A stretch of DNA of 64,000 nt from an uncultured Planctomycetia bacterium. Lineage in GTDB: Bacteria > Omnitrophota > Gorgyraeia > Tantalellales > Tantalellaceae. Positions within the stretch are counted from its first letter, which is position 1, and each line of letters opens with the position of its first letter. Shown piece after piece: positions 4,482 through 64,000 of this stretch. The notes beneath the pieces are model-generated. The model searched no databases and had not been told where the DNA came from. It was given only the letters and a program-made list of their open reading frames with translations. The translations under genes and the position numbers were made by a program. The stretch covers positions 265-64,264 of the forward strand of contig CAYPCX010000008.1 in the NCBI GenBank assembly GCA_964409365.1, in the 5' to 3' direction.

Positions 4482-4520
4482 GGCATTCTCCCTTCAAACC
4501 TGCAACCTGAAACCTGCGAC
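4482..4520 (-). repeat. Five tandem heptamers (minus strand: TTGCAGG-TCGCAGG-TTTCAGG-TTGCAGG-TTT...) immediately upstream of the rpe RBS
   Basis: Plus strand aaacctgcaacctgaaacctgcgacctgcaacctgac. Period 7. Confidence 0.8.
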
Positions 4521-4532
4521 CTGCAACCTGAC

Positions 4533-11867: not shown

Positions 11868-11876
11868 GTTCCCCCG

Positions 11877-16473: not shown

Positions 16474-16506
16474 AATAGTTATGAGTTATGAGTTTTTAGT
16501 TTTTAG
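16474..16506 (+). repeat. Tandem heptamer tract AGTTATG-AGTTATG-AGTTTTT-AGTTTTT on the 3' side of the four-helix-bundle gene
   Basis: Direct reading of the intergenic sequence aatagttatgagttatgagtttttagtttttag. It is inverted relative to the AGTTNTT tract at 16870-16913. Confidence 0.8.
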
Positions 16507-16857: not shown

Positions 16858-16869
16858 TTCCCAACCCAA

Positions 16870-16913
16870 AACTAACAGCTAACAACCAAGAACTAATAAC
16901 TAATAACTAACAA
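16870..16913 (-). repeat. Tandem heptamer tract (minus-strand reading AGTTGTT-AGTTATT-AGTTATT-AGTTCTT-GGTTGTT-AGCTGTT) on the 5' side of the four-helix-bundle gene
   Basis: Plus strand actaacagctaacaaccaagaactaataactaataactaacaact. Together with 16474-16506 it forms imperfect terminal inverted repeats around the AT-rich gene. Confidence 0.8.
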
Positions 16914-17552: not shown

Positions 17553-17588
17553 ACCGCCTCCATGTCAACCTGTTACCTGTTACCTGAA
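17553..17588 (-). repeat. Heptamer repeats (minus strand GTTCAGG-TAACAGG-TAACAGG) upstream of the hisB RBS
   Basis: Plus strand cctgttacctgttacctgaac. Confidence 0.75.
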
Positions 17589-22581: not shown

Positions 22582-22650
22582 GGTGACCTCCGGATATTTA
22601 TTTAGGATGGATACAATTAGCACCTAAAACATTTCTATATAAACAGCACT

Positions 22651-22678
22651 ATTATAATAGCAGTTCGGTTTTTGTAAA
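22651..22678 (-). promoter_or_regulatory. Sigma70-like promoter for recA: -35 TTTACA, 16-bp spacer, -10 TATAAT (minus strand). The -10 is embedded in the palindrome CTATTATAATAG.
   Basis: Minus strand ...cctTTACAaaaaccgaactgctatTATAATagtgc... about 70 nt upstream of the recA ATG. The -10 is a 6/6 match and the -35 a 5/6 match. Confidence 0.5.
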
Positions 22679-22740
22679 GGCATTTCTTACGAGTATAGAA
22701 AATCAAGTGTCAAGCAACAAGTATCAGGTAACCGGTTTCC

Positions 22741-22830
22741 AGACAACTCTGGTCACTGGTTACTGGTTCCTCAATACTCCACCCTCGATACTCCTCCCTT
22801 GATACTCTACACTCAATACTCGATACTCTA
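22741..22830 (-). repeat. Repeat cluster upstream of the recA promoter: heptamers CTGGTCA-CTGGTTA-CTGGTTC then five copies of [CT][AG]ATACTC at 7/14-bp spacing
   Basis: Plus strand ggtcactggttactggttcctcaatactccaccctcgatactcctcccttgatactctacactcaatactcgatactc. Confidence 0.75.
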
Positions 22831-22882
22831 CTATTAGACACATTTTGGGGAAGGATTCTTTCAGGTTTTTTTCCGGGACGGC

Positions 22883-23989: not shown

Positions 23990-23996
23990 GAAAGGT

Positions 23997-24025
23997 ATTA
24001 TAGCGTAAAAAATAGAGGTTTTGAA
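23997..24025 (-). promoter_or_regulatory. Sigma70-like promoter for the CinA-C/PncC-like gene: -35 TTCAAA, 17-bp spacer, -10 TATAAT, with the -10 ending 7 nt before the ATG (leaderless-type arrangement)
   Basis: Minus strand TTCAAAacctctattttttacgcTATAATacctttcATG. The element lies in the 49-nt gap between the giant ORF stop and the CinA-like start. Confidence 0.45.
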
Positions 24026-24038
24026 GTATCTTGTAAGA

Positions 24039-27000
24039 TTACGCGCAGGCATGTATGCGTCTTTCAACATCCGCGTACACGCTGAAAGGTTCATCGACCG
24101 GAAGCACCCTGGCCCCGGGGAGAAGCTCGATAACGATAGTGGTCCTGCACTTCCCTTTGTCGTCCCAGCAAAGCTCCGCTACGTCCCTGTATTTATCAAC
24201 GTTGTCTATCAACGCGTAACGGTTCCTGAGTTTCATCCGCATTCTTTCCTTGCCGTATTCTCCCGTCCTGGCAAGCGCCTGAGTGGTGGCAAACCGGATG
24301 ATCTTGAGCAGCGGATAATAATACTTCTCTGCCGTGAACCCGTCTTTTTCCTTTATCACCGCGATGGTCGAGGCGCCTTCGAACCCGCTGAAAAATTCAC
24401 GTTTATTGTCCTCGTTCGTGATCAATATGATGTTTTCCATGTCCACGCTGCCGTCCCCGTTCTTTATGTTGCCCTCAAGGTTGCCGCAAATATCCCCGGC
24501 ATCCCCGTAACAGATCTCCACGCCTTTCACTTCCTCCGCGCGTCTCTTGAGGGCGCGCATTATCTTTTCCATCTTTCTCCTGGCCTTCCCGGTAAAGAGG
24601 CCCATATCGACGGCAAGGACGACTTTCTTTAGCTTTTCTTCGCTTTCCGTTTGCTCTGCTCCTCTTGCGCCTTCATTCGCGCGGTAACCAAGGATCCTCA
24701 AGTAGTTGAAAAGTTCGGGGACGGTCCACTCCACGCTGCCCGTGACCCTTTCCTCCGGCAACCGTTCCAGCCTTGTCTCGACCGCCGGCAGAACGGCGGT
24801 ATCGGCAGCTGCCGCCTTATCCGGAGCCGAAGGACCGGCAGGACAGGCCTTGATCCCTTTCTTGTAATGATAAAATATCTCGACCTTTTCCCTGAGTATG
24901 CCCTTGATATCTTCTTCCGTCCACCCGTTCCTTTCCGCGTCTGCCGCCATGCCGCATAATGAAATGTAATAATATACGGAATGAGATGTGCTTTCCGTCA
25001 TTATCCTGTTATTGTCCACGTACATCTTCAGCCTTCGATTGTCCCCATGACACAAAACATCCCTTGTAAGGACATAATCCCTATAGACGCATTCCACTTC
25101 ATCATCCAGCTCTTCAGGTTCCTCTTTGAACTCGTCTGAATGGCTGATCTCGTGATTCAATCTTTCGCACAACGGCCATAAGAAGGAATACTTTGGAAAT
25201 ACCATTGCCCTGTCCAGTCCGTCAAGGAGCCTTCTCGGCTCCATCAGTGTATTGAAGTACAAAGGAACGCCTTTTTTTAACGCAATATTACTGAACGATG
25301 CCCTTTCCATGGACAAGTCTTCTTCGCTACAAAGATTATCATAAGAGAGCACCGTTGCCGATATAAAGCCTGCATTAAAAACAAGTATATTCGGATCGTT
25401 TTCCTCCTTGCCTTCGTATAAACAGGCATCCTGCGGAAGGTTCTCAGCGACCCTTATCACCAGGCCGTTATGCCTCTCCAGGCCATGATCCAATGCCAAT
25501 GCTAATCCAGGCGAGTACCCTTGGGTGAACAGTGCCAGCAGATCCAGGGATTCAGCTATACCAAATCTCAGAAGCCCTGCCATTTCTCCGGCACCGCCCC
25601 TAATCTTCAGGAACGCGGAATAACCCTCAACATAAAACCTCTCTTTCTCGGCATCGTTATAATCGAGATACACACCGTCAAACATGGGCAGCATCTTGAG
25701 GTCTTTATAAGGTTTAGTCCTTTCCGATCGCATGAAGTTGAACCCTTTGGCTCCGGGGATCTCCCCTGCCTCAGGTGTATCCTCCGGGGCCTTTTCCGCC
25801 CCAGCTTCGGGCTGGTCGGAGACCACCGCGAGAACTTTATCAACGACCTCACATGCTTCCTGCCACGAGGCTTCCTTGAACTGACAAAAAATCGCTTTAG
25901 ACTTATCAATAGCCTCCACCTTTTCGGGCTTTTCTATCTTAAGCTGCTCAATGCTGCTGGTCATGTTGATATAGAATTGCCTATTGTCTTCCTCTTCTCC
26001 ATATTGCGGCCAGGCTATCCATGTCCACCACTCCCGCCAAAATCCTGTCCCTTCTTCGATCACAGGTATATAAGCATGATGCTCCTTAAAAGATGTGGTT
26101 AAGAATTCGCGAAAACTGAACTTTTCCACACTTGTTTCTTGCAATTTCTGTCCGGGAGCTTTAACTTGAACGATTGCTTCATACTTTTTCTCGGGATCTT
26201 CGACAAGTGTTCTGTAAATCTCCTTAAATGGTTTCACTTCATCCTGGAGCTTTTCCTCCCCGTTTTCTACTTTTACATAAGAATTTATTTTTTTGTGAAA
26301 ACACTCATGGGCGATATACCTTTTCAAAAACTCTGTATCCCCTTTTTTAAGACCGCTATAGAACAATAAGACATTCCCGACCGTATGGTATACACGGTTC
26401 ATCTCTGCTATCGCCTCCGCTTCCGGCATCTCATCAAGCTGACTGTATAAAGACGGATCTTGTGCCCTCAGATTCGCAAGTAACCTTTTATACGAATCAG
26501 ACCCGAGTTCTATATCATGCTCATTGACGGTGCCGGCCATAGCTTTAAGAGGATGCCCTGCTGCTCTCATTATGCTGTCAGGAACAATATACATCCCATC
26601 CGCAACCTCTATCCCAAAAGGACCTGACGGGCAAGTCGGAACTTTTGTCATGCCGCTTTCTGTGTCCGGGGTAACCTTCTTTTTTGCCGGTTTTTCATAC
26701 GCCGCCATGAAAGAAGTTTCTATCCCGGAGACCGTTTGCGGGAGTTCCACCCTTTCCAGGCCTTCAAATTCTTCAGTGCCGTCGCTTCCGATCAGCACGA
26801 ACTTGCTGCCTTCTTTGAGCTCTGAAAGCTTGGCCTTCAGCTTTTCTCTGGCCTCTCCGCTGCCATCCCCTGCCTTGAACGAACGCCAGTCCACGCATAT
26901 CAGGTCGTAATAACCGAATTCTTCGTCCAGGAACTCACCTTCCGCAAAGGCCACATTCCCGAGACCGATCGTCTTGCCGAGACCGGCAATACACCTTTTC

Positions 27001-30000
27001 CCCTCTCTTAAAAGCTCCTCGTCACTTTCAGCGACTACGACGGATTCCGCATCAGTACTGGCGAATTGTGAAAAGACAGCCGCTCCTTCTGCGTTCCTGT
27101 CACCAAAAATCAACGCGTTCTTGCCCAGTTGTGTCAGGAAGAGCTCCGCTATCGCGTTGAACTGCGGCACGGAGGTTCCACTCCCGTGATACTCTTCGAT
27201 AAAGAGCACGGCGCTCTCCCCTGTCACGGGAATAACGCGTTTCAGAATACCGCAGATGAATCCCGGCAGGCGTGCCTTTGCGAACAACCGGCCCAAGACC
27301 CTGTACAACGCGGGATGTTTTTCCTTGAACGCCCGCGACTTGCGCGCGTGGTATAACTGGCGGGCAATGCCGTGCACGAGCCAGGCAAGGACCACAACAG
27401 GAAGCGCGAGGATCCCTATCAGGGCCAGGCTTCTCAAGGTCGGGCCTTTGCTTTCGCCTGTTTTCTCGCCGGCTGAAGAGCCCGGCTCCGGTTCCGTTTC
27501 CTTCCCTCTCAGCGTGAACCTGGCGCGCGTGCCTTCTTGAATCCTGATCGGGGTTCCCTTGTCCTCTACAAATTCCTCTTTACCCGGATCATACACAAAC
27601 CTCCGGCCCGTTCCTCTATCACCCGTTTCATATACTATTTCACCGGCTTCGGCAAAACTGGAACCAACCGTGTACCTGAACCCGCGCCCCTGGCCGGAGG
27701 AGATGGCTTCCTGCGAAAAAGCCCATTTTCTTTCCTGTTCGACGTCCCAGTTGCCGCCGCCCGTGCCCCTAGCCACTATCTCAATGCCTGTGGGCACGCC
27801 GTCCGAATAGAGCTTGCGCAACGTAACTATCCCACCGCCACAGTGCCTTTTTACGTTATAAGACAATTCAAAAACGACTCCGCCAACCTTGGTTTCAGAC
27901 CATCCCATACGTTCACATACGTTTCCGAAAAATTCACAAGCCCGTTTTTCTGCTTCGTGGGCAGCTTTCAACTCCACTCTTTCCGTCCTTTCGCCCATGT
28001 CGCTTTCCCTTCCAACCAACTTATCAGAGAAAACGGGTAGGATTTCCATGTTAAACGAAAACCACGCCTCCTGATTCAGTCCCTCGAGCCTGCCCTCGTC
28101 ATTCCTGAGTATCTCAATAGCTCCTTCCTCGAACATCCTCCTCTCTATCTCATGTGCCTCATTACCGGATACTTCAAAGATAGCGTCCCCCGTGGGGTTG
28201 TCTTCAGTGATGTTCAGGTTGCCGGACGGCCTCCATACCTTATCCGCTTCCGAGAACTGCACCCCGCCGTACCCTGTGACGCACGCTTCGGCCGTCACAT
28301 AATAGGTGCCGGACTGCTCCGGCTTGAAAGTGCCTTTAAAGACATAATCATGATAGTTCTGTGGATCCATGCCTCCGACACCCGCGTAAGCCATTGGCAT
28401 GTATTCCGTCGCGACAAAAGCCTGTCTTTCGCGATCGAACTTTCTTATTTTCAGTCGCGCCTGCAGACAATTTGCGACAAATTCAAGATTTTTCGGATTG
28501 CTGGCTTCTTTATCTTCGGGGTCATCTTCCGGCGAAACAGGATAAAAATCTTTTCCGAGATATACATTGAATTGAACATCGTGACTCGAACCTATCTTGC
28601 AATCTATCCTCGACCCGGAAGCGGGTTTAAGTTTTCCCAACCATGAAATGCGCGGGTAAACACCCCCGAGCTCCTGCGAAACGACCAGCTGCCGGAAAAT
28701 CCCGGCTACCTGCTCTATCGTAATGTTCTGGTCGAACTCGATCTCATTCTTAAGGATCTCTATTATCGAGCCGAGCGAATCAAGATCCTCTCTCACTTTA
28801 TTATCGGTATCGCGCAACGTGTCTTTCTGTTCCTCGGGGACCGGAAGGCTGTCAATTATAACGTCCATTGCATCCACCGCTTTTTCCAGGTTGATCCGGA
28901 CACCGTTTATGTGTCTCACTAACAATCTATGCACGTCCTTTATGTCGAGAATCTTCTGCGCTTCCAGTTTAGAGCAAATGGACCTTTCTTTTTCAGCGTG
29001 TCGCTCGAACCGTTCGGTAAGTTCGCGAAGTTGTTCCGCCACCAGATCCTGATCCAAAACATCTATATATTCCCTGAGAAGATGCTTCGTATAGTTGGTC
29101 TTCAATAATCCCGCCGTCGACGCGAAACTGTTATAGACTATATGATATATGTCGCTTTTCAGCTGTTCGGGTTCATTGCCTTTCAACTGATCAAGTAAAG
29201 GCATGACCTCGGACATCGTTAGTACGTGCCCGTTTTCGGCCTTGCCAGTCCCGCGCATGTGTTTTATAAAGAACTCATACTCGTCATGATATGTCCTGTC
29301 GAGATATTCGACCACATCCCGGAAAGAGAACTGCGTCGCGAGCACCACGATGAATAAAGAGTCCAGTTCCGCTTTCCTGTTCCCGTTGGTGTTCATGAGT
29401 TCGCGTACAGTCCTCTGGAATATCCTATCGACACTTCCCGGTGTGAGATCGACCAGGGCATACCTGTTCCTGCTTTCGTCCAGAAAGCCTTTAAGGACGC
29501 CTTGTAGGACCACCAGCCTGGTTTCGCCGGGATGAGCTTCTTTCCATCCTTTGAACCGGTGAACGATCATGTTATCGCGGCACTGCGCCCATTGCTCTTC
29601 GATCTGACCGCTGATATCCCCAAGGGTTCTCTCGATAAGTAAAGGTATTTCTATATCAAAATTTTCCAGATCCTGTCGTCGCCTCGCGTGCCTCTCATAA
29701 AACCTGACCGGATTGCCCAGCAGTTTTTCGCTGTAGTGATCCACGGCCAGTTCCTCGACGAACTCTTGTTCGCTCCCGTAGCTACCGTGCTGCCCCTGAT
29801 AAAGTTTCGCTAAAAGCAAATATCTTCCTTCCCCCAAATGGCCCTTCAAGAAACCGGCAAGCTTGCGTACATGGTCATCGGTTATCATGCCATGCAGCCT
29901 TTCATGGAATCTCCCGTACTCTTTTACTTCGGCCAGGGAAATATCTCTTCCCAGCACTTCACAAAGCGACTGCCTGTAGACCTCCAGGACCTGTTTCGGC

Positions 30001-33000
30001 TGCGCTTCAATCGTGGATATCTGTTCGCCCTTGATGATGCGGAAAAGACCGGAACGGATAATCTCCCGGGCTTCTTCCCTGGTACATATTTTTCCAGCTA
30101 CAAGCCTCCCGGAAAACACCTCCCACAGGTCTTTTTGCCCGTCTCTGACGTACCTGGGCATCGGAAATTTACGTTCTTTGCCGGCTAACCCGTCGTCCTT
30201 CGCGAACGCAGGTTCAGACCTCGTGAGGTCTATATACCCCCTGAATTCAGCGAAAATGCTTCTGTAAAGTTTCGCGAAAAAGTCAGGTTCCGCCAAGCGC
30301 TCCTTACAGCCCTCTATGTCGATCAGAACATATTCCGCGAGATCGATCCTTTTCTCCGAAGCACCCGGATAGTTCTGTTCTAAAATGCCTTCGGTGCCTT
30401 CGACCCTGCTTATCTGACAAAGACCTTCCCGGCCCTCGACCTTGCTGATTCTGAGGTCCTTATCCACCTTGAAAACCTGTCCTATGGGCACAAAATTCAC
30501 ATGGAATTCGAATTTCGGGTCCAGCTCCGGACCTAATTCCTCTTTCGCCTGCTCAGTGATCACGCTAAGCGCTTTCATGATCTCCTGCTGTGTAGTACTA
30601 CTTTCGCGACGGTTTTTGTAATCTACGACAAAATCGATGTCTTTCGGCCATGGTTTCATGCATCCTTTAACAAAACTTCCGATAATATAGTATCGGCTGA
30701 TATCGCTTTCGCTCCTAAAAACATTTATCACCTGCTTGATATACGGATAAAGTTTCGTCAGGCATTCTGAAACATCTTCAAGGTATTCCTCGTGACTCTC
30801 ATTCGCCAACGGCCGGGTTTTTGCCATCGCTTTAACACGCGGGTCTATCCTGTCATAGTCGTAATGTTCCGTAACGAACCTCCAGGCAAGGAGGAACCTG
30901 GTAAGGAGACTCTCCCCGTAGGCCTCTTTCAGAAGCGCCTTCTCTTTCCCGAAATACCTGCCGGAGGCGAAACCTTCCGGACGGTCTACGGACCTGTCCT
31001 TTTCTTCCCCAAAGAACCGGTCTACCCTTGCCTTCAAGTCCTTCTGCCTTTCAAGAAGCGCTCTGTGGTCAGGCATATCGTTGAAGAGGATCACCAGGGC
31101 TTCTTCCAGCTTCCACAGGAACTTAAGCGACCAGCCCATATTGGTATGGGCGGCTTCATGGGAAAGCCTCTCATGGAGGAGCTGCGCGGCTACCTCTTTG
31201 TCTTCTACATCAAGAATGGTATCGATAAAATGCTTATCAAGAACGATGAACCTTCTGCCGGAACGGCTTGTGTATTTCGCGGCGTTCGAGGAAAGATCGG
31301 GATACAATACTATAACGGGCGGAGCCCTCAACGACGGAAAATGGGTATACACGAAATCCTTGATGACCGAAAGCAACCGCGCGATATAACCTGCCGGTTT
31401 AATCTTATTCGCGAGGTTCAAGAGTCCCGCCAGCTTTACGGCCTTTTCCCTTCTGGCCTTACTTCCCAGCGGTTTCCTCACCACATATTCGCCGCTTTCG
31501 TACCTTATCCCGGTACCGATCAAGCTTGATTCATCTATTGTCTCTACCGCCTCTCCGGCAGGATAGGAAACGATCGCATCTTCCTGCATATGCCTTGCCA
31601 TCTTTATGGACTCGTCCAGCGGAGCCAGGTCAACACCCTTTTCTCTTTCGAGCGCGGCCTTCATCTCACCGAGCAATCCTATCATCCTGTTCTTTAGTTC
31701 CCCCGCCCAGAACTTTCTGAGATACCCGGCGTGATCGATCGCCTGGTCCGTCCCGGCTGAGTCGCTTATCATCAATTTGCTTAAATTATCCAGAGCGGCC
31801 GGATCTGTTCCTTTCAAGCTTTTCTCATGTTCTTTCCCGATGGTGGAAAGAACTACAGCAAGAATGAACCGTCGCATGAACGCCTGCTTCCTGTCCGGGA
31901 AGCCCTGCGGGAAATTTTCATCCACATATTCCTGGAAAGCCTTATAAAAACGTGCTGACACTTTTCCCTTCCAGGGACATTTCACCACTTCCGGCCCCGG
32001 CAACGCGCTCATCGGAAGATACCAGTTATCCAACGCCTCGTAAAGCTCGGCAACCTCCCCTAAAAACCGCTTGCCGGGTCCTTCTTTTTCGATCCCGATC
32101 AGCCTCGCGTAAAGAATATCAAAGAACAGGCGCTGGTTCTCCACGAGATTCATATCAATATACGGCGATCTGCCGAACCTTTTCTCCTCCTCGATCAGGT
32201 CCCTTACCCTGTTCATGTATCTTTTCCACATCGTCCTGCAATTGACGATACCCTTAAGATCAGCGGTCACGGGCTTTTCTTTTTCTACGATAGTAACGAC
32301 CCGTGCCATGCTCACCTGGTCGGCACTTATCTTCTCACCAGAGTTTTCCAGATCGTCGAGGAACAATCCGACAAGCTCGGACATCTTTGTCTTTTGAGCA
32401 ACGAGGGTAAAGGCCTCTTCCGCGGTCTGTTCCCCAAAAACCGGCTTATACGCGCGCCCGACCATTTCAGAAACAAAGGCCTCCTTTATCGCTTTAATAT
32501 CCCTTTCGCGGGTGTACGCCCGGTGATGCATCTTGGCATTCTCCAGCGAATAGGTGAAGTTCAAACCCGCCAGGTTGACTTCCTCCGACAGGAGAAGATC
32601 CATCATATCCCCGACCTTATCCTTTATCTCCCGGCGGCTGCGTTCCGGTCCATCGACGCAGGATATGGAATCAAAATCTATAGTGACAACAACGGGTTTG
32701 TCCCCTATTATCTCGGAATATCTCTTCTTCAGCTCATCTATCGTCGCGAAACTGTGGTCATATAGATACCCTTTGTCCTTGTCGGGATTGTTCTCGCTCC
32801 CGTATATCCATATTTTCCTGCCTTTCAGCAGATCCTCTTTAACCATAAAATACATCCAGTTCGCCGGGTTCAGCCATCTACCCGACCTGCAGTCATTATG
32901 AAAATCGATATTGATAACAGCCGCTTCCTCGGGCAGGGTCTTACCCGATTCGCGTTTGGCCCAGCAATAGAACATATCATGGTCGTTATGGACCATGACC

Positions 33001-36000
33001 GGTATCTCCCGGCCTTTTTTATTCTTCAGCGCGGTTATCCCGGAAAACTTTCCGGCTATCTTTTTGATCTTCGCCATCCTGTGCAGATACCATCCCCAAT
33101 AGATGAATAAGCCGAAAACAGCGGTCAGCACACTCCCCACTCCCCACACGGGATTCATGTTCAGGTAAACACCGCTATCAGACCTTTGTTTTGGCATACC
33201 CAGCGTGATCTTGCCCGAAAGGGCGCCTTCCTCATCCAGATACCGGTATTCCGGCGAAACCCGTTCTTTCCAGAATTCCTGGGCCGGTTCATCTTCGATC
33301 TTCACCTCATAATTTTTAACGCCTCTGGTCCGAAGATGATCTTCCACGCTCTCGACCAAAAAGGCGCCCAGCTGATCGCTTCCGTGAAGAAGCTCTGCAT
33401 ACAGACCATCCACGATAGCTTCATTTTCTTCTGTTCCCGCCGAGCTTGCGGAAAAGACCGAATAACGCAGGAAACCGACAGGTTTACCACCGGCAAGGGC
33501 GACAAAAAATCCGTTATCATCGGCATCAGGCTCCGCTCTTTCCATCCAATCGATATAATTCCTGCCGTTTTGCGCGACTCCTTCACTCATAAGGAATGCG
33601 GCGAATCCTTCCCTTTCCTCCTCGCTCAAACGGCTCGAATGTATAACCCGAGCGGTGTATTCCTGTCCCGATATATCTCTAAGCACACGCTTCCTATCCC
33701 GGATGGGCAGCGCGGTAGTGCCGTCTTCGTCCCGCGGCGCTCTTCTCCCGGGCATGAACGCGAAGCACAAAAGCGTATAGAGAACACCCAATAGCCCGGC
33801 CCCCGCCAGCACCTTTGCTAACACGTCGCTTGTCCCGATCAAGGATACACCCCCCGGGAACGGCAATATCGCGCCCAGGACTATCCCTGCCGCAACGGCC
33901 ACGGCAACCCACTTCATATCGAGCCCGGCGCCCCAGAAACGATTCATGCCCAGATAGAACCCGCCAGTATCCTCCTGCGCAACATTGGGACCTGATCCAT
34001 CTCTGACTTCTTCTATTTGCGCAACGTGCTTTTCAACAAGGGCTTCCATGGCTGCTTGCAATTCAAGCGTCCTTTTGTCAAGTATAAGCTTGTGCCCTCC
34101 CCGGTTCAGGATATATTCATCATCACGGCACTCCGTGCGCAGGTCCCGCTTTAAGAACTCTTCCAGTCCTTTGTTCTGTAAAAACCCGGTGAATTCATCA
34201 TAGAACTGCTCATAGATATCTGAAAGTGCTTCTTCTTTTGCGCTCTTTTTCCCCGTTTTAAGGTAAGCGAGCAAAGAGGTATGCAGAAGGTGAGTCATCC
34301 TCAAAGCCCCGCGGTGGCCTGACCTGTCAGACAGGACATTCCCCAGACCATATTCCGTTAGTTCGTCAAACGTTTCTTTTACCCCTTTAACGACATCCCA
34401 CGGGACCACATCCTTCTTTTGCCTGTACGCATATTGGTTCTTTTTCTCATTGAGCCGTTTATCGGATGCGGTCAGGAACCCTTCCGCCAGTGTTATCAAA
34501 TTCACGCCTTCTTCAAAAGCTTCCTTGGCCTCTTCCCTTCGGAATATGCCGGGTCTTGCCACGTTTATATGCAGGGGAAGCACTATATCGGCCCCTGTCG
34601 GAATTATCCCCAGGTCCTGCATGGTGTCTATCATCTCCGCCACGTCTTTCCAGTCCCTTGCCGGTTGCGGCGAAATTTCGAGTATCACCCGGTCCTCCAT
34701 GAACTCATGCTTGTCATCAGTCTCTATGTCGAGCAGCTTCATCAATGCCTTCGTGGCTTTCACGGGATACCCTTCGACCGAACGCTCGATCTCTATCTCA
34801 CAACCTATGGTCGGGAAATCCTCCAGGGCCTTTTCTCTTTCCAGGCACTCACTTATTCTTCCCCTCAAACACTCAACGACCTCTTCCGGCTCGGCGCGTT
34901 CTTTCCAGAGCATATGATAAGCTTTCAGTTTCAGGTTCGCGCCCGCGCCCCTTGATATCCCCATAAGGCCCTGATGTATATCGGCATCATCCAGCACGTC
35001 TTCAAATAACGCATGTAAAGCGGACCTGCCACCCGCCTCATACCCCTCTTCGGTGAAGACTTCCTCGACCGTCTGCATAAAGTCGGTCACCACGAACTTC
35101 TCATAAGCTTCATCCACGGTCATCTTCCTGCCGAAGAACGTGGAGAGAACGGTCATCCATATAAGGCGCAGCTTCCAGGAGAAGGCGGACCATGATCCTG
35201 AATTATACAGGCGTTCTATCTCATACAGTTCGAGGGCTTTCTCTTTATGGAAGTCCCAGGTGCGTTTCCCCCTTCCGGGGCCCCTTATGGCGGCCATGAT
35301 CCCGATAAAGCCCGGCTTCCTTTCCGAAAGGACTTCCCTGATATACTCACGTGTCTCGTCCCGTCCGGCTTCGTCCACGGGTAAGGGTCTGGGTCCGAAC
35401 ACCGCCATCTCGCCCTTGAACAGGTTGATGATCTGCGGGAATTCGTCGAGCCCACGGTCTCTCAGGAATTCGCCGTATTTCCTCACTTTCCCGTCACTGT
35501 CCATTGTCCTCAGCTTATAGCACCTGAACACCTTACCCTTGTGTCCGTACCTTTCCTGGACGAAGAAGAAGCCCTTCAACGTATCGATAGACTCGCGTAT
35601 GAACGCCAGAATCGAGAGAATAAGCGACTCCAGCGCCGCCTTAAGCGCATCAAGCCATAAGAAAGGCCGTTTTTCTTCAGGTGAATCCAGTGATTTCACG
35701 CCAAATTTCATGTTGTCTTTTCCGCGATAATCACGTCCTTCTTCCGATATGAACTTTTTCCAAAGATTCTGGGCGGCACCATTGCTTTCTACCCCGACGA
35801 AATACTCCCTCACTCCACGGCCCCTGAGATAATCTTCCAGACATTCGACCACAAACGTCCCTAAACCTTTCTCGCGATGTTCAAGTGCTACATATAAACT
35901 GTGGACGTGGGCCTCACTCGGGGAAAAGACCAGATACTTGATAATACCTGCCGGTTCTCCGTCGACCAACGCGATAAAGAATCCCTCACTGTCACTGACC

Positions 36001-54000: not shown

Positions 54001-57000
54001 TAATCATCCAAAGATCTCGGATGTATCTTCTCGCGCGCGGCTATTATTTTTTGCACTTCATCCAGGCCCACTTTCTCCCGCAATTTGTATATAGCATTTA
54101 TCACGACCGCGTTCATGAAACCGAACATCGGGCAGAGGTTCTCCTTGAAATAAGCCGTATTGAAAGATAAAACGCCTCCCTCATTCATGGCGGAATACAC
54201 TTCCCGGAACACATCCTCATAATCATCTATAAGGTGCATGCCGTTGAAGCAGATCCACACGTCAACAGGTTCAGCCACTTTCTCCGCGAACTCCTCGGCC
54301 ATTCCCTGCACGAACGTTATCCGCCTGTCGCCCCTGAACCTTTTCTTTGCCTCTTCCAGGGATGTTCTATCGGGCTCCAAAGCGGTAACACTGGCCTGGT
54401 CACCCAGACAAGGAAGAAGCACACCTAAAGACCTGCCTGTCCCGGTCGCGACTTCGGCAACATGGCCGTTTTCGCCTTCTATCTCGGCAAGTTTGATAAG
54501 TTCTCTGTTGTTATCATCGCTCCATTCAGCGCCCGCGAACTTGTCATAACCGGACGGCTTCGCAACCTCGTCCTTGCCTTGCCGCGTTATCAGCGCATAC
54601 ACGTCCTTCCCCAGCGTAGCAAAAGTTAAACCTGTCATACCTCCCGCTACCGCAAAACATATGAACACCAGAACACATCCGGCAAGACTGATCGGATAGC
54701 TGCTGCAAAAATAATAAACAGCCCCTACCCCGGACGCCAATGCCAGAAGAAAAGCGAAAATGCCTCCCCGGGTCCCAACGGAGATCTTGAAAGACGCTAT
54801 CTTCTTCCACGGCATCTTCCACGCCAGAAGGATAGCCGCCGCAAGTGCCGCTACTATACCCAGCACCTGAGCGCCGAGAGCGACCACGGCGATAGTAATG
54901 ACAGATAGCCCCCCGAGAAGTTCGAGAAGAGTAACTCCCCGGATCTTTTTGGTTTCCCTTTTCTTGCTCACATCAACTATTAAGATCCCCTCCTCGTCGG
55001 GTTTGGACAGAACGGTTTTGGCCCCTGATGACACAGCGCAAGAGTGGCCCCTTTCAAACCGATCCGGACGATCACGATACGCGATATCTTCAGGTTTGAC
55101 CGCCGTATTCACGAATATCGCCGTTGTTTTGCAATCATTGCTGAGCTTTTCCACCCGTGATTGGCCCTCGGAAGGTATCGTCGAAGAAGGAACTATTATT
55201 AGATCGGCTTTACGCGCATCCCTTGACACTTGTAAATAAGCCGCCTTATCCGCGATTATGCGGTCGGACTCCATGCAAATAAGAGCACAAACCTTGTGAC
55301 CTTTTAATGTAAACCTGCGGTCCTCTGATTCGTGGGAGAATTTTGTGAACTTCTTGGCCCCGCCCATTGTCCGGATGACATAATACGTGATATCCAACCC
55401 TGAATTCACCAGACTGAATCCCAAAGCTATACCCGTCTCACTGGCCACTTTCGTTAAAGCGGACACCCTTTCTTTCTCTTCTTCTTCGGTCCTCAGAGAA
55501 CCCCGGTCCAGGAGCTCAGGGAAAAGCACCAGATCAGGGGCGTTTTCCTTGAATCTTGTTTTCAACGACTTAACTATAGCTGCCATCCTCCGGGTATTAT
55601 CCCCAAAATCTCCTCTCTCGATCTGTGCGCACGCTACCCTTAATCCCCTCTTTCTGACCCCGCCTTTCAGTTCAACAGGGGGGACCAGGCCGGGATACTC
55701 CTCTTTCTGCTCTTCATCCTCTCCCGCGAGCCTTCTCCACTTCTTTTCTTCCTCTTTATTGGTAGTATCTACGAAAAACCCCCGGGGGAAATTCCCTGCG
55801 GCCAGGACCATCATCGAAAGAATACCGAGCATAAATATCGTCATGGGCCATCCTGTCCCGAATCCCGCCATCAATTCGCCGGCGGGCGCGGCCTGCCCGC
55901 CGGATGAGAGCGCTTTAGCCGCTATTCCAATGGTGGCTGCCGCCGCGATGAACATCCCGAGAACAACATTATCGTCATCATCTTCTTCTTTTTCTTCTTC
56001 TTTGAGATCTTCCGCATAAACGGTCGTGAGTATGAAATGCGCCGTCCATTTCACGTATTGTGCCGCTTCATACGCCTCATCATACCCTTTGCCCATATTG
56101 TCTATCGCCTTATTGGACATCTTTTCAAGGCCGGCCAGCTTCTCTCTGGCGTCCTCAAGGACGTTCTCCAGGCCTGCCCTGTTCATGCTCCAGATATCAT
56201 CCTTGCTGAAAGCGAAACCTGTTAGTTTCTCTTCCGCACGGGCAGCACTCTTGGCTTTTCCGGGTCTTTCCCGTTCCAACCTGGCATCAACTATACTTAA
56301 CTGGTCATCGACCAGGCTTTGTATTTTCGCGAATTGTTCATCGGCCTTCATCCAGGCGATCAACCCCTTACCCAGATCAAGCATCTTTAAAGCGTGGCTG
56401 TAATGCTCGGCTGCTTTTTCAGGGTCGTTATCCCGGACGGCGTCACCGCGTTCTTTCTCTCCCACGACATCCTGCTCTAACCTCTCCAACTGTTCGGTCT
56501 TTCCATCGTCATTCTGTGACGACCAGGAAGTAACGCTTTTAAGGTCTGATATCACTATCGGCGGCTGTCCGTTGGAAACACGCTCTTTATTAGACTCGGC
56601 CAGCAGGCTCTTCAATGTATATGGCGCGCATCCCATCCTCGCCATCATTTTCCTCGCGATGGCCGTACCTTCATATTCAGCGCTCACTTCCTGATACGCT
56701 TTATTGAACCTCTTGACCGTAAAGTGCTTCCTGCTGAATACAGGCGCGGGGAGACCTTCTTCTTTACGTCTTTTTTCATCTTCTTCTATTAACCTTGCGA
56801 GGACCACATCGTTGACACCCAAAGCCTTCTTTATCTTTGCCTGCATGGGATAGTCCCCTTCTTTTTCCAGTATTTCCTCATACACCTTCCTGAAGTCATC
56901 GACCGTCAGCGGTGCTCCCCATTCCCGTGCCGGTAAGAAAGTCGTAAGGGCCACCAGCGCAATCACGTTGAGAGGGCCGAGCATATTACAGAGCACGTAA

Positions 57001-60000
57001 AGAAGCTGGAAGAGACATCCTGAAACAAACGCGAATATCCCCACCTGGATGGAATACACAAGGAGATTGCTTTGCAGCCACCGGGGCAGTTTGAACTTTT
57101 CCTGGAGCCAGTCGATGATCTTGTGGGTCCATTCGTGGGGGAGGTCGATAAGTTTTCCCAATATGGAATCGTCCTTATCCAGTTTGATCTTTTTCGTTCT
57201 AAGATCAAAAGACGCGGTCTCGCGGCGGTCAAAGAAAACGGAAAAACCTCTTTTTTGGGGAATCGCGTGCGTCGGCGTCGACTCAACGATAGGTATATCC
57301 AGAGCGCCGCTCTCTATTGCCCCGCTTACAAGAAGCAAGAATCCGGCCAGGCCAAACCCGATCCAAATGGCCGGGTGCAAGTTCCAACTCGCGGCATAAA
57401 TAGCACATAACCCCGGCACGACCGCGACCCAAACATCAAATGCAAATGCCGGGACGCGTATCATAGCATCCGTATCCAGGTTCATGCGGCCTATCATCGC
57501 TCTCAAAAAGAGCAGCACTCCCGCCGCGCCGAGCCCGACCGATACGGCCGGGTGCAACCCTAATACTATGGAAAGAACGGAAAGAGTCCCCGCAGCAAGA
57601 CCTGCCCGCGCCGCGCCCCGGATGGTGGATTTCTGCTCCCCTCCCATCTTTTTTTTCAATCTTTCTATTCCGGCTGCGACTTTTTTCCGCTCTTCTGTTT
57701 CAGCCATTTTCTGTTCTTCTACCCTTGCAACTTCTTCCAGACAAATAGCTTTTTCTTTTTCCGGCAGTCTTTCAACAAGAAGTCTGATCTGATCAGCCGT
57801 CTCTCTTACAGCATCTTCCGCCACAAACTTCCCGCCACTGAGACTGTTTAATTGTTCCCTTATTGTTCTCAAATTTTTGTTTTTATTGACTTGCCTTATC
57901 TCTTCGTCTTTTTGATCTTTTTCTTTTTCGGCTTCGTCGATCAGGTGTTCTATGTCTTCCGGTATCCTCAACTGGCGCAAACAAGCAATGCAAGCTTCAA
58001 TCTCTTTAGCCTTTTCCCGGAGTTCTCCCCATGGGTCTTCCCCGTCCGGATCGATCTTTCGAACATCATTCCGCAAAAACTCTAACCTTAATAATGCTTC
58101 ACCTATCTTATGCATCCTGATCTCTTTGCCTTTTCGGTCTTTTTCGATCACGGCTTCATGCACGGCTTCACGAACCAGACGATTACTTCTCACAAATCCA
58201 AACTGGCGCAAACAAGCAATGCAAGCTTCGATCTCTTTAGCCTTTTCCTGAAATTTCTCCTCCGAGCCCTCTTCTGCCGGATCGATCTCTTGAACATCTT
58301 TCCGCAAAGTCTTTACCTTTGAGAATGCTTTACCTACCTTATTCATCCTGTCTACTTCAGCTTGCAGTTTCTCCTCCATTTCAGCCGCTTTACCGGGATT
58401 GAACGCCGATAACTTTTTCAGCGCTTCCCTGGCCTCACCGACCTGAGGCAGTGAACCATAATCCTCTTCTGTTATCACAGAAGACATCATGCTCATGGGC
58501 ATGTTAACTTTATTCAGAAGCTCTTTATATCCGGTGCTGCTCTGCTCGAATCGTTTCGTGAGAGCCTCTTCGGTCATCATAGACAAGTTGTTCGAATCGC
58601 GTTCTGAGGCAGGTTTGCTTTCCCCGTTGGCCTGGAGAGCGTTTTCGATCCCCTGCACCACGTCATCTATTTCGGAAAGTTTCCGGTTCACCTCGGCCAT
58701 GGCTGCCGCGGGATCCTTCTTATAATTTGCCAATAATCTATTCTTAGCCTTGCCGACTTTTTTCCCGGTTTCTGTTTCTTTAGCCGTCTGTTCGGCGAAC
58801 TTTTCCAGGGATTGCCCGATATCGGAACAGGCTTTGATCTCTACATACGCTTGTTTCGTTTTTTCGGCTGCCTGTTTCAATCGCCCTAAAAGTCCGTACA
58901 TGCGCGCACAGACAATATCGGCATACATCTTTGCCAATCCATCCTCACCGGTAAATTCGGGAACAGTGTGACCGGTTTCCTGTTCCAATCTCCCTATGCC
59001 GCTTTCCAGCATCTTGGCAACCCCGGACCCGCCGTTCACCAGCCCGGCTTCATTTATCGAAAGTACCGCGGATAACAGTGTCTTTGCTTCTTCCCCGCTC
59101 CTTTCGTTCATATATGAGGTTGTGTCTTCTTCTATCATTTCCGGGGATAACAGCAAAGCCTCCCTCAGCTCTCTGGCAATCTGCCTCTGATCTTTGCTTC
59201 CTGAAGCGACCATGCTATCAACGAGACACAATGACACTAAGGTCCACATGCGCTCCTGCCACGACCCTTCTCCCTCCAATACCGGCGGTGAGGAGGCAGC
59301 CAACTGTTCCAGACGCCTGATGTCATCCTCTTTTTGCCCAAACCTTGAAGATATCCTGGTAAATTGTTCTTCGCTGATAACGAATTCGCCTCTTTCATCG
59401 ACGGCGACAAGCGCGCGGATCAGCGGGGTCCAGATCCTGGAACTCTCGCTATGGATCAATGACTGGGAAAAGGCGTCCAGCCGTTCCTGCTGGGGACCCG
59501 TCAAATGGAACCAGTTCCACTCTGCAGCAAGCTTTTGCCCCGGGCTCAATTCTGCCGATTTTTCCGCGGCGGTGGATCCATCCTCGGAAACCGGTTCCTC
59601 GGCGGCAGGCTCTTCTGCGGCAACCGGGGCATCCTCTGAATCGGCGCCTGCATCGGCCGTGCCTTCATCCTCAACCGCTTTTTCCGCTTCATCCGGCGAG
59701 GCTGGTGAAGCCACTTCATTAGCCTCGTCCTCGGGGATTATGGGCTCTCCGTCCGCGGCGACCAGCTCCACGCTTTTATCTTCCACGAAATAATCGGGTA
59801 TTCCGAAAAACCTCTCCACCAGGGCTTCCGTGACCCTGACATGGACCAGGTGCCTGAAAATGTCAAAACCGAACCTGTCAAAAGCCGCCCCGTTACCCAG
59901 GAGATTATCGGCTTCCTTGCCCAGATCTTCTACAACTTCCGCGACGATCTCCTTGTGGTCCACGACCTCCTGGAGATACTTGCCCAGGGCGCCTTCCAGG

Positions 60001-63000
60001 TATTCTTTCTTGAGCCGCTCAAGTGCCTCCTCGGCCTCAGCCCCTTCCAGCTTCCGGTCTGCCAACTCCTGCAATTCCGTTTCCACCTGCTTTAGATCCG
60101 GGTTATCGCTGGAGTGGAAACCCTCCAGGACGCCTTTCACGAATATGATCATATCCGTAAAACGATCCTTTGAAACAAGCTCATTTTTCCGTAACTGTTT
60201 GGCCCCTATTTTCTCGGGGTCATCCCTGGACGGCACAAGAATCAATACGGTCCGGCCTTCCGCGAGATCATAAAGGTCTCCCATCGAGGGCATGCCCGAG
60301 AAATACCCCCTTCTCACTACTACGTCGGGCTCTCCCTCGACCTCCCTGTCGGTCCTGTCCTTGACCGAAGCGCAGTTAATGTTCGTCCTTTTTTCCATCA
60401 ACTCAAGTTCGCCACTGTCACGGGCGGCAAGGTACATGCTGCATCCGACCGGCGGCGATGCTCCCATACTGAAACCATTTCTCCACAAGAGGTCCGAAAA
60501 ACCGTCACTTGTTTCCTGGAACTGATACGCCCAGACAAAATCATCCGGATATGTTGCAGTGTATGATTCGGTCTCTTTTTCATTGATGAATTCTCTCATC
60601 AGGAAATACGAATAATACCTTATATACTCGCGAAGATCGTACAAGCATATGTTAAAACTGCGCATGGTCTCGTTATCGAAAGGCACCTCTTTATAGAGTT
60701 CAAGTTCCTCCCGCGCGTTTCCCGCGAACTTCCTGACGGCCGCATGTGTATAAAACAGGAACTGCAGCGTTATCGCCTTGTGCACGTTATCCGGACGGGC
60801 GCCTTGTTCCTTGAGAGCACCACTGAGCTTATCAAGCATCTGCTGGGGCCTGTCGCTGACAACGCGGGACATACCTTTAAGGATATCGCGGTTTTCTTCA
60901 CATGAGAACGGCTTCAACCCCTGTGACAGCTCTTCCATCTCGCGGGCCAGCACGCTGTCGACCTGGTCGGTCTGCTCCTGTAAACTTTCGAGTAACGTAC
61001 TCTTCGCTCTTACCACTTCTTCCCGGGACATTTTCCGCGAGGGATCCGCGGTGATCTTACGCGCTTCCCACACGAACGGCGCTGATACTATCGCCTGCTT
61101 AACGTGATCTTTGATCCCACCGAGCAACCTTTCAGCTTCCCCGGGATGCACGCCTTGTCCGATAAACCCCTCTTTAAGGGCATCGATCCTCTCCTGGATA
61201 GCGTTCGGGGAGCGAGCCCTGTCTTTCTCGATGACTTCCATCCTTTTATCCAGCATATCGATCGTCTCTTCCAGCGTGTAATAAGCCCTGTGCCATTCAT
61301 GCAATTCGTGAAATCTATAGAAAAGTTTGAAGACCTCGTTGTCATCATCCATGGGAGCCCCGGCGTTCTTTAAGGAATCGCGGGTGAAATCCGAGTATGC
61401 GTCAACGTAAAAATCTTGGGTCGCTTGTCTGAACTTTCCGAATTCCTTTTCACAAGAGAGACCCGCCAGCGCTCTTTCCTTGAAAGCAAGGTATGCCAGC
61501 CACAGCTTTCCGCCCTTTTCCTTGTCTATCGTTTCCGGCAACTGTTCGGCAAGAGCGGGCGCGATAGAACGCAGCTCTGACAGCGACCCGTTCATCTCTG
61601 ACAAAAGGTTGTCCAATCTCCGGGTCAATAAGTCCCTGTCCGTGGCATATATTTCCACGTCCATCCAGATATGTGACGCACATGTGGCGATCTCATGCCA
61701 GTATCTTTTGCATTCGGTGATCACCCTTTCCACGTCCTTGATCAATTTGTCGCCCCCTTTGACCGATCCGGATATCTTTTTCCTCAGCTGGTCCATCTCA
61801 TCTTGTATATCCTTGAAACACGTCCCGGGCTCGAGCCGGTCATGGAGTTGAAAATATATCTGTTTCGGCTCGTGGACAAAACTCTCCCATTCTTCGATAA
61901 AAGGAGCGAACCTGAAAACGTATACCACGGTCCCGCCCTGATGAGACAAACTGTAATCCATCGGTCCGCCGAACGCCTCGATAGGCACCTCGATCACACC
62001 GGGCTCACCGCTGACCACTACCCAGAAACCGTCATTTCCCCCATACGAATATATCCCCGGTTTAGGTAATGTCCCGTCCCAGGAGGATATCATCTCCTCT
62101 TTTATCTCCTCCCAGACGCCCTCGGCAAGCCTCAAGGTCCTCTTCTCTTCCTGCCTTAATACCGGTACGACCTCTTCCGCCCTGTATCCCGGCCGGGCAT
62201 AATAAAGGTAGGGGAATTTTTCCCTATATTTTTCTTTCATATTATCGGATAATCCCGCCGTGACCGCATCAAGAAGGATGCCGGGCTTTGCCAGCACGTA
62301 ATCGATACCCGCTTTGGCTCTGCCCTCAGAGTAAAGCGTGACAAACTCGATATTCCCGTTGGCATCTCTGGCGAGCTTTCCACCTGTGATCAGCCTCCCA
62401 CAGCGCGCCGGGTCGTATATGGGCCTTTTCCTTTCACTGTCCCAGAGGTAGAAATGAAGCACCCTTTTTTCTTCATCGGACATGCCCCTCCTGCCGGGCA
62501 TGTCGATCTTGTAACCCTCCTTCATGGTGACCTCTATATATGAAGGGTATAATCCGCGGGCGGGAATGACCTTAAGCGAATCTATATGCTCGTCTTTCAG
62601 TATCCGCGCCATCTCTTCGGGGCTCAGGCTGGGCGCAAAACCGCATTCCTCAAAGAACCGCGTCGTCGCGGGTGAAGGCAAACCTTTACTCTCCTTTGAC
62701 CTGGACACCACTATGTTATAGTTGATATTCTCTTCTTCGAACGGCCTTCTCATCATCTTGTCTATGAACTCTTTCCTGTTTTCTTTTATTTCAGGGTCGT
62801 CTTCCGGCCTTTCCTCAAGCCCTCTTCTTATCATGTCATGCAACCGTTCTTTTTCTCCGTCATCCCTGCCGCAGGCGCGAGAGGCTGTCTTGGCCGAGTC
62901 GAGGTAAAGAAATCCGTAGTCCAGTCCGCAAAGCAACGCTCTCTCATCCCGCACAAGGGCAACTATCCTCTGGTGATCCTCCTCGCCGGTAAACTGCGCG

Positions 63001-63941: not shown

Positions 63942-64000
63942 ATATACTTTTCTTCCTCCGGGAGTTTTTTCGACCTTCTTGGAAGCGATCTCGCCCTTTT

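Follow-up and report, generated by a model that had tools for sequence, protein, structure and literature searches.

Giant open reading frames (ORFs) are common in the phylum Omnitrophota, and their products are rich in transmembrane (TM) helices, poorly conserved, sparsely annotated and often multi-enzyme (10.1101/2023.11.21.568195; PMC10066038; 10.64898/2026.06.07.730766). Nielsen & Lui (2026) clustered 5,761 proteins of at least 10 kaa (thousand amino acids, aa) and analysed 916 in detail, 94% of which have TM helices or a signal peptide; 46% are 'TM-only', which the authors take to mean anchored in the membrane with the domains in the cytoplasm. They also described a multi-enzyme class of these long proteins and a co-occurrence module of methyltransferase, GNAT and HAD domains (10.64898/2026.06.07.730766). 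West-Roberts et al. (2023) distinguished Archaeovorin and Dockerin types and reported SecA_DEAD and N-terminal C39/S8 domains (10.1101/2023.11.21.568195). The V. archaeovorus giant has 39,678 aa and 42 TM helices; its peptides were threefold up on attachment and a coat function was proposed (PMC10066038). Thousands of Omnitrophota giants are catalogued and almost none is understood, the prevailing idea being that of a surface predation protein. Here we describe one such gene, referred to as the giant, on a 64,000-nucleotide stretch of contig CAYPCX010000008.1 (the window).

The giant is a genuine chromosomal gene for one polypeptide of about 16,000 aa, 13,300 aa of which lie inside the window, and it adds to the already known Omnitrophota giant genes. 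As an example of its kind it is compact, and its annotation is unusually rich: about a dozen modules can be recognised, and most have kept their catalytic motifs. With roughly even confidence we read it as a membrane-stapled multi-enzyme chain, which would lie largely at the cytoplasmic face, act on envelope or lipid-linked precursors and evolve by gain, loss and reuse of cassettes. It makes three questions testable: whether the enzymes are inside the cell, whether the chain is intact or processed, as its enrichment in HExxH motifs raises, and whether modules are exchanged as cassettes, as hinted by the GNAT-PGT pair that is present or missing in frame. The gene was located as follows, residues being numbered by the window ORF so that the codon of residue i begins at window base 63941-3(i-1):

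24039..64000, minus strand: giant ORF (13,300 codons; start ATG at 63941, stop TAA at 24039-24041), its frame open to the window edge

The first-pass annotation of this DNA had reported an uninterrupted frame from 24039 to 63941, too long to arise by chance, and this was borne out. The minus-strand translation contains a single terminal stop, and the chance of 13,300 stop-free codons is about 1e-307 at the base composition of the giant ORF, whose GC content is 0.51 and not about 56% as first given. Composition by codon position is flat over the whole ORF (GC1 about 0.56, GC2 about 0.38, purine at position 1 about 0.66), which fits one reading frame that is coding end to end. The neighbouring genes end in TGA (11), TAA (7) and TAG (5); since all three stop codons are in use the genetic code is standard and stop-codon recoding was ruled out. 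An Rfam scan of the window gave no RNA family and thus no intron or ribozyme in the ORF. Collapsed repeats were ruled out as well, because Tandem Repeats Finder (TRF) detected no tandem nucleotide repeats within the giant and the mean nucleotide identity between its helix-turn-helix (HTH) units, described below, is only 52%.

Other assemblies contain the same gene. An exact-match search showed that seven contigs of 50-200 kb carry an AlaRS identical to the one next to the giant. The contigs ENA ERZ27256770 k141_351798 (162,665 bp) and JGI 3300017987 Ga0180431_10000154 (90,874 bp) differ from the window by 0 and 1 mismatches, respectively, over 22.7 kb, and in both assemblies a gene of 16,071 aa (48.2 kb) is called at the position of the giant. 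In-frame stops and misassembly had been named as grounds for rejecting the gene; the two independent assemblies speak against them, with the same 16,071-aa call and a match to the window over the shared stretch. The 13,300 aa first taken for the full size are a window artefact: about 2,771 aa (8.3 kb) of the gene lie beyond base 64000, outside the window, and the frame stays open through the 59 nt 5' of the ATG at 63941. From the open frame at the window edge and the 16,071-aa public calls it follows that the hydrophobic segment at aa 22-77, previously read as a signal-anchor N-terminus, is an internal TM hairpin. A homology search of indexed proteins with aa 1-1200 gave no match, the giant itself included, and no relatives of aa 1-500 were found in metagenome and genome contigs.

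GC content at third codon positions (GC3) is 0.58 in the giant versus 0.65-0.78 in every one of the 22 neighbours (471-23989), and relative synonymous codon usage of giant and neighbours correlates with r = 0.85. The codons TTA, AGA, AAT, GTT and ACA are commoner in the giant. It uses the same codon dialect as its neighbours with a weaker bias, and the low GC3 could reflect a weak expression-linked bias, relaxed selection or an older foreign origin.

Domains were assigned by Pfam, NCBIfam and PDB sequence searches over tiles of the ORF. The following enzyme modules were identified, among which the two arginase-fold matches are an addition to the earlier annotation:

53964..54503, minus strand: class I S-adenosylmethionine (SAM)-dependent methyltransferase (aa 3147-3326)
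48711..48962, minus strand: arginase/deacetylase-fold match 1, partial, with a DHHxD-type motif (aa 4994-5077)
44544..44807, minus strand: Fic/Doc-family domain with the non-canonical motif HPFEDANHRTGW (aa 6379-6466)
41469..42482, minus strand: FkbH, HAD-IIIC phosphatase plus C-terminal part (aa 7154-7491)
40272..40664, minus strand: second SAM methyltransferase, HemK/PrmC-like, weak match (aa 7760-7890)
37374..38252, minus strand: Cof-type HAD-IIB hydrolase module (aa 8564-8856)
35085..36188, minus strand: cassette of GNAT (aa 9313-9397) and phosphoglycosyl transferase (PGT, aa 9430-9605), together aa 9252-9619
33267..33539, minus strand: second GNAT (aa 10135-10225)
32664..33011, minus strand: arginase/deacetylase-fold match 2 (aa 10311-10426)
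30486..30740, minus strand: pol-beta-type nucleotidyltransferase (NTase) with GS...DIDF (aa 11068-11152)

The FkbH module matches TIGR01686 over its full length (191.5 bits versus a cutoff of 146.65), has an intact LVLDCDGV (DxD) motif and matches BF1531 (PDB 3slr) at E 1e-27. The PGT reaches 85.8 bits against PF02397 (Bac_transf; cutoff 27) and E 7e-10 against PglC, and its motifs, namely KLRTM, the Asp-Glu dyad in LDEFPQ and GPRP, are intact. PglC-type PGTs begin with an N-terminal re-entrant membrane helix that has a Ser-Pro break; the corresponding helix here (aa 9430-9448) is short, carries charged residues and has no Ser-Pro. Motifs are likewise intact in the NTase (GS...DIDF) and in the GNAT (RxxGxG). 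The NTase region also matches DUF6932, and the segment holding the second GNAT is paralogous to aa 9248-9424 (36% identity).

For the Fic domain PF02661 was matched with 30.2 bits (cutoff 24) and FICD at E 1e-4. Compared to the canonical HxFx(D/E)GNGRxxR, HPFEDANHRTGW shows Gly to Ala, Gly to His and a final Arg to Trp. The motif is degenerate and nearer to the Doc variant, so AMPylation activity is not to be assumed. We take the Doc variant to be HxFx(D/N)(A/G)NKR and liken HPFEDANHR of the giant to it.

Domain searches that return nothing had been named as a result that would speak against the first-pass annotation, and most of the motifs it cited gave matches. This includes the methyltransferase placed behind a CN-hydrolase, the degenerate Fic motif, the FkbH-like HAD, the Cof-type HAD and, toward the C-terminus, a GNAT, a Bac_transf, a further GNAT and an NTase. 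Its second methyltransferase is matched as well, at low strength.

Between the first methyltransferase and the Fic domain lies the following array:

51501..53474, minus strand: array of 11 head-to-tail XRE-type HTH domains (aa 3490-4147)

The 11 tandem HTH repeats noted earlier proved to be exact: each unit has 59 aa, in strict register, with neither indels nor linkers. On one tile HTH_3 was matched at E 1.8e-44 and HTH_31 at E 9.4e-43, and NCBIfam gave weak matches of the units to the MqsA, HipB, PezA, RodZ and Wmk families. The array has a net charge of +24, with conserved scaffold positions and hypervariable positions in helix 3. Strong multi-repeat relatives were not found at E<=1e-10 among 8,000 candidates, from an index that missed the giant itself. 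PADLOC gave only generic HTH matches on the giant (HTH_VI and the RmrA N-terminal HTH) plus SoFic at E 9e-4, with no match for the NTase, GNAT and C-terminal segments. Membership in a defence system was rejected, as the PADLOC matches are to generic HTH domains.

TM segments were called by a Kyte-Doolittle scan combined with the positive-inside rule. The scan gave 37 candidate helices, mostly arranged as two-helix hairpins with Lys/Arg on the outer flanks. The membrane segments and linkers are, from the start of the window ORF to its end:

63711..63878, minus strand: TM hairpin with Lys/Arg on both outer flanks (aa 22-77)
63492..63569, minus strand: Lys-rich low-complexity linker (aa ~125-150)
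59592..59741, minus strand: acidic low-complexity linker (aa ~1401-1450)
56988..57611, minus strand: polytopic TM block of ~5 helices, with an HEWTH motif in a 90-aa loop (aa 2111-2318)
55788..55967, minus strand: TM hairpin (aa 2659-2718)
54636..54902, minus strand: TM block of 3 helices (aa 3014-3102)
50883..51053, minus strand: TM hairpin, duplicated at aa 4518-4580 (aa 4297-4353)
50202..50390, minus strand: TM hairpin, paralogue of the preceding one with 48% identity (aa 4518-4580)
47802..47996, minus strand: TM hairpin (aa 5316-5380)
47286..47462, minus strand: TM hairpin (aa 5494-5552)
39948..40079, minus strand: TM hairpin (aa 7955-7998), followed by single TM candidates at aa 8183-8201 and 8397-8415
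36252..37313, minus strand: EamA/DMT-type polytopic membrane block (aa 8877-9230)
33756..33908, minus strand: TM hairpin (aa 10012-10062)
24042..27431, minus strand: last TM helix (aa 12171-12189) and C-terminal region of ~1,100 aa with two HExxH motifs (aa 12545, 12930)

The Lys-rich and acidic linkers named in the first reading are present as low-complexity stretches, and its several polytopic TM blocks correspond by hydropathy to aa 2111-2318, aa 3014-3102 and the EamA region. Its duplicated TM modules are the paralogous hairpin pair, and its DMT-like membrane block matches EamA above the cutoff (PF00892, 32.9 bits versus 28.2) with one repeat. Seven hydrophobic peaks are clear in this block and up to 10 are plausible by eye; a canonical EamA/DMT protein has 10 TM helices as two 5-TM repeats.

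SAM, acetyl-CoA, NTPs and UDP-sugars are unavailable outside the cell, and the active site of a PglC-type PGT faces the cytoplasm. Since the enzymes of the giant need SAM, acetyl-CoA, NTPs and nucleotide sugars, most of the modules would face the cytoplasm. From the methyltransferase and HTH segment to the segment with Fic, FkbH and the second methyltransferase 8 helices were counted, and the hairpin before the second GNAT adds 2, both even numbers. TM parity would put the nitrilase-like module described below, and possibly the final ~1,100 aa, outside.

Further regions of the chain gave weak matches or none:

54939..55685, minus strand: nitrilase/CN-hydrolase-like module, weak, below the Pfam threshold (aa 2753-3001)
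57123-57137, 31146-31160, 29892-29906, 26295-26309 and 25140-25154, minus strand: HExxH motifs (aa 2269, 10928, 11346, 12545 and 12930)
49398..50180, minus strand: module without annotation, 42% identical to a module on the related contig L084 (aa 4588-4848)
34149..35084, minus strand: conserved module with no assigned fold, also present in L084, 66% identical to its orthologue with dN/dS 0.22 (aa 9620-9931)

The CN-hydrolase proposed in the first-pass annotation stood only in part. In the giant itself it was not detected by Pfam at E<=1, by PDB phmmer at E<=10 or by a word-index homology search, and a two-sequence profile of the giant and its relative P0074 retrieved no PDB nitrilase. However, aa 2753-3001 contain the nitrilase-like stretches VACAQ, LVLFPEL and ALICMES, and the homologous module of P0074 (33% identity, E 4e-29) has the same Glu (FPE), Lys and Cys (LICME) residues and a sub-threshold CN_hydrolase match (E 0.009, 15.8 bits versus a cutoff of 23.2). 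For an AlphaFold2 (AF2) model of the giant's module (pLDDT 51) the top three Foldseek matches were nitrilase-superfamily amidases (E 2.5e-4), at low TM-scores of 0.31-0.34.

The caspase-like His-Cys (C14) module found no backing over aa 7991-8560, neither in Pfam at E<=1 nor in the PDB at E<=10. The HExxH motif reported near the C-terminus is present and is enriched, with five occurrences in the giant versus 0.35 expected; none of 5,000 shuffles reached five and control motifs occurred 0-2 times. Four of the five motifs share a hydrophobic-x-HExxH context. They are motifs without a family: no peptidase or metallopeptidase was matched over the tiles scanned, even at Pfam E<=1, and the C-terminal 1,500 aa gave no Pfam or PDB match. 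An assignment of aa 9610-9940 as a YbdK/GCS2-type amidoligase, suggested by IGCEIEIE...ISPQP...LHINV, was rejected, as the AF2 model had a pLDDT of 49 and YbdK appeared only at Foldseek ranks 29 and 42, neither significant.

Relatives of the giant were collected by an exhaustive HMMER search with aa 8551-9650. Two orthologous fragments, P0001 and P0002 (60-78% identity), both lie on the 4.4-kb contig L083 (JGI 3300017613, Ga0186781_1446266). This contig contains a poly-A frameshift at nt ~2990-3000 and a 54-nt inverted duplication of its interior at 4367-4420, which holds the terminal stop. A split gene in this relative was ruled out, because the frameshift and the contig-end duplication are assembly artefacts. 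Artefacts of this kind on short contigs can hide giant ORFs in protein databases. A Nei-Gojobori comparison of the window with L083 gave dS 0.74, dN 0.20 and dN/dS 0.28 over 1,228 codons (range 0.22-0.31), with 0.22 in a 310-codon stretch without known domain. The giant is a fast-evolving protein under purifying selection, and since the low ratio includes the domain-less stretch, even such stretches are argued to be functional.

In the L083 orthologue the GNAT-PGT cassette (aa 9252-9619) is missing in frame, whereas P0003 (4,924 aa) has a PGT module 61% identical to that of the giant. Copies of the Cof-HAD module, about 30% identical, occur in at least 9 proteins of 1.4-6.3 kaa, and arginase-fold module 2 resembles a repeated module in P0036. 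The modules shared with P0074, P0036 and L084 are spaced differently there. On contig L084 (Ga0272441_10022695, 1-6829), whose start truncates an open frame of 2,276 aa, homologues of aa 4588-4848 (42%) and aa 9649-9979 (33%) are about 1,300 aa apart, versus about 5,000 aa in the giant. The giant thus appears to evolve by gain, loss and reuse of whole modules.

In the large module-sharing relatives P0003 and P0074 (regions L085 2069-22843 and L086 6001-15771) the PGT is located at the N-terminus. Both genes are found in phospholipid-synthesis neighbourhoods: P0074 is flanked by plsY and gpsA, and P0003 lies behind pgsA-like (CDP-OH_P_transf) and pgpA genes and is followed after 6 nt by a 4,659-aa gene with HTH_8, DnaJ and GNAT domains.

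The reality of the gene, its domain identities and intact catalytic motifs, the purifying selection and the mosaic build are shown by the data above; for the topology, the substrates and the cellular role of the giant we infer the following arrangement. About 35-40 helices would thread the chain into the cytoplasmic membrane, most of them as two-helix 'staples' that return it to the same side, together with three polytopic blocks, one of which is DMT/EamA transporter-like. Between the staples would hang the soluble modules, that is two SAM methyltransferases, two GNATs, the FkbH and Cof HADs, the PglC-type PGT and the pol-beta NTase, and further the Doc-like Fic domain, the two arginase-fold modules, the nitrilase-like module and the eleven XRE-HTH units. 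This operon's worth of membrane-fixed enzymes might build or modify a lipid-linked glycan or other envelope precursors, and the basic HTH array might bind nucleic acid or serve as a docking surface. The phospholipid-synthesis context of P0003 and P0074 speaks for this arrangement.

Several points weigh against it. The topology comes only from hydropathy and the positive-inside rule; the path to the first GNAT and the PGT is even only if the EamA block has 10 helices, of which seven are clear, and a candidate helix at aa 10265 would put arginase-fold module 2 and the NTase outside. No domain was assigned to about 60% of the chain, including aa 78-2110, 4588-4848, 5553-6378, 9620-9931 and 11153-13300. 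To complete a glycan pathway a glycosyltransferase, a flippase or a polymerase would be needed, and none was found on the chain or in the 24 kb downstream; the window holds neither the upstream flank nor 2,771 aa of the protein. The protein is known from its sequence alone, and most domains of other giants were predicted to be extracellular, although these predictions were called unreliable (10.1101/2023.11.21.568195).

The giant could instead be a surface 'coat' or predation protein of the Archaeovorin kind, with most modules displayed outside, where they would bind or degrade the envelope of a prey or host cell; we regard this as rather unlikely. The Omnitrophota-like host fits this explanation, as do the attachment-induced peptides of V. 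archaeovorus (PMC10066038) and the mostly extracellular domains and cell-wall degradation put forward by West-Roberts et al. (10.1101/2023.11.21.568195). The parity count would also allow an outside position for the nitrilase-like module and for the C-terminal ~1,100 aa. However, Pfam detected no adhesin, dockerin, TSP3, HEAT/TPR, glycoside hydrolase, lytic transglycosylase or peptidase domain in the giant, and the HTH array would make little sense outside the cell. The cofactors and the orientation of the PGT active site argue in the same direction, and the 24 kb downstream are housekeeping, with trp and his biosynthesis encoded and no type II secretion system (T2SS) or pilus genes. The surface mega-enzyme on which the first-pass annotation speculated is therefore not favoured, since cofactor needs and the TM-hairpin pattern suggest that the modules mostly face the cytoplasm.

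Another explanation concerns the fate of the chain. A polyprotein might be cut into membrane-anchored enzymes, by embedded HExxH metalloprotease modules or by an N-terminal protease outside the window. The excess of HExxH motifs and their shared context point this way, and C39/S8 domains near the N-termini of other giants were proposed to cleave them (10.1101/2023.11.21.568195). Against this, the motifs match no peptidase family and nothing in the PDB, and neither a third zinc ligand nor cleavage sites were identified. Processing is unlikely on this evidence, and it would be compatible with the membrane-stapled chain rather than exclusive of it.

It is quite improbable that the giant is a depot of toxin- or effector-type enzymes and regulators aimed at a host, a competitor or a phage. 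Parts typical of toxin-antitoxin and defence systems are present (Fic/Doc, GNAT, NTase and XRE-HTH), the Fic motif is Doc-like, HTH units match MqsA, HipB, PezA and Wmk, the NTase matches DUF6932, and PADLOC recovered HTH_VI, the RmrA N-terminal HTH and SoFic. But these HTH matches are generic, the NTase, GNAT and C-terminal segments were unmatched, no secretion signal or delivery domain was found, and the sugar- and lipid-related modules (PGT, FkbH, Cof-HAD and EamA) fit such a depot badly. That the ORF is nevertheless artefactual, through misassembly, repeat collapse, stop recoding or the decay of a pseudogene whose frame has stayed open, is very improbable: the two 'genes' seen on L083 where the giant has one ORF are homologous to it continuously across the frames, and the agreeing ENA and JGI calls, the absence of TRF repeats, the three stop codons in use, the dN/dS and the chance of a stop-free frame all oppose it.

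The membrane-stapled chain can be taken one step further, in a version to which we give little credence. The giant would be no surface weapon but a novel organisation of cytoplasmic metabolism for a very small cell: an 'enzyme string', inserted into the membrane during translation, would stand in for an operon. A dozen or more of its catalytic modules would be stapled to the inner membrane face, the basic 11-unit HTH solenoid with its hypervariable recognition helices would tether DNA or RNA or recruit partners, and whole cassettes such as GNAT-PGT would move between giants like mobile exons.

The host is probably an uncultivated bacterium in or near the phylum Omnitrophota, as judged from RecA identity and synteny. 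Among 185,579 species genomes the best RecA matches were metagenome-assembled genomes (MAGs) of Candidatus Omnitrophota with 75, 71 and 69% identity; a MAG labelled Deltaproteobacteria reached 70%. The gene order recA-alaS-his-trp is common to the window and the Omnitrophota MAGs with the best RecA matches. The closest genomes (L003, L006 and L004) keep recA-alaS-his and have no giant ORF upstream of recA, so the position of the giant gene is not conserved.

The downstream flank is a chromosomal housekeeping neighbourhood. On the same strand follow cinA, thpR/ligT, recA, alaS, hisDB, a 23S-rRNA-intervening-sequence (IVP)/bAvd-like gene, hisHAFI and trpEGDCFBA, and farther downstream genes for an M16 peptidase and an M50-CBS protease, rpe, a phosphoglucomutase gene and lepA. 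Only 49 nt (23990-24038) separate the stop of the giant from cinA; a promoter-like TTCAAA-17-TATAAT lies inside this gap at 24025-23997 and no terminator-like site was seen in it. A stronger promoter-like site (11/12 matches) is located at 22678-22651, upstream of the recA ORF in the stretch 22582-22882. The bAvd-like gene (16507-16857, minus strand) lies between hisB and hisH, encodes a four-helix bundle of 116 aa (Pfam E 7e-35) and sits in a local GC dip (0.494 for 16001-18000). It is called in the JGI assembly and uncalled in the ENA assembly, while the DNAs differ by one mismatch in 22.7 kb.

How does the giant compare with single enzymes that resemble its modules? With PglC/WbaP (PDB 8g1n, 8e37, 9s7s) it shares the profile and catalytic motifs at aa 9430-9605, but its PGT is embedded in a chain, has the short helix without Ser-Pro and belongs to a cassette that is missing from the orthologue. 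The whole HAD-IIIC model of BF1531/FkbH (PDB 3slr; TIGR01686) is covered, but without an adjacent acyl carrier protein or polyketide synthase context. As in RodZ, MqsA-like antitoxins and Wmk each HTH unit is a complete HTH_3/HTH_31 domain, of which the giant has eleven in strict register without linkers. The apolipoprotein N-acyltransferase Lnt consists of a polytopic TM domain and a periplasmic nitrilase-fold domain. The nitrilase-like module of the giant also lies between TM blocks, retains Glu, Lys and Cys and may be non-cytoplasmic by TM parity, but neither CN_hydrolase nor LNT_N of Pfam is matched in the giant.

With the two types of West-Roberts et al. the overlap is partial. Many TM helices, methyltransferases, GNATs and large unannotated regions are common to the giant and the Archaeovorin type, and so, probably, is an Omnitrophota origin. 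The Archaeovorin hallmarks HEAT/TPR, GT5/GT1, glycoside hydrolase, NUDIX, SLT, peptidases and SecA_DEAD are lacking in the 13,300 aa; neither a divergent SecA_DEAD domain, which most full-length giants have, nor a C39/S8 peptidase came up at E<=1 over the tiles scanned, and the initial 2,771 aa of the chain fall outside the window. The giant has less than half the size of the V. archaeovorus protein and its cofactor needs point to the cytoplasmic face. Hallmark domains of the Dockerin type were not found by Pfam.

Among the catalogued Omnitrophota giants the multi-enzyme class is the closest in build: likewise a single ORF of more than 10 kaa with many Pfam families, none of which dominates save one repeat. 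The downstream flank (cinA-thpR-recA-alaS-his-trp) differs from the T2SS/pilus or glycoside-hydrolase genes near catalogued giants, and the HATPase, HD, starch synthase and GT1 domains of the latter are lacking here. In turn, the main texts of the giant-gene papers name neither an 11-unit XRE-HTH array nor Fic/Doc, FkbH or a PglC-type PGT. The size criterion of these papers is an uninterrupted ORF of more than 20-30 kb, and 39.9 kb lie within the window. The giant also has ~37 candidate TM helices by hydropathy (35-37 peaks), roughly the same density as the mean of 22 at 10 kaa or more, the same methyltransferase, GNAT and HAD content, weak conservation and repeats diverged at the nucleotide level, as in the catalogued giants, which are mostly sequence singletons. 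The likeness to Omnitrophota giant genes seen in the first-pass annotation is thus upheld by the RecA matches, shared synteny, size, TM richness and multi-enzyme content, and the domain matches bear out that one chain combines enzymes for modifying glycans and small molecules with a transporter-like block and an HTH array.

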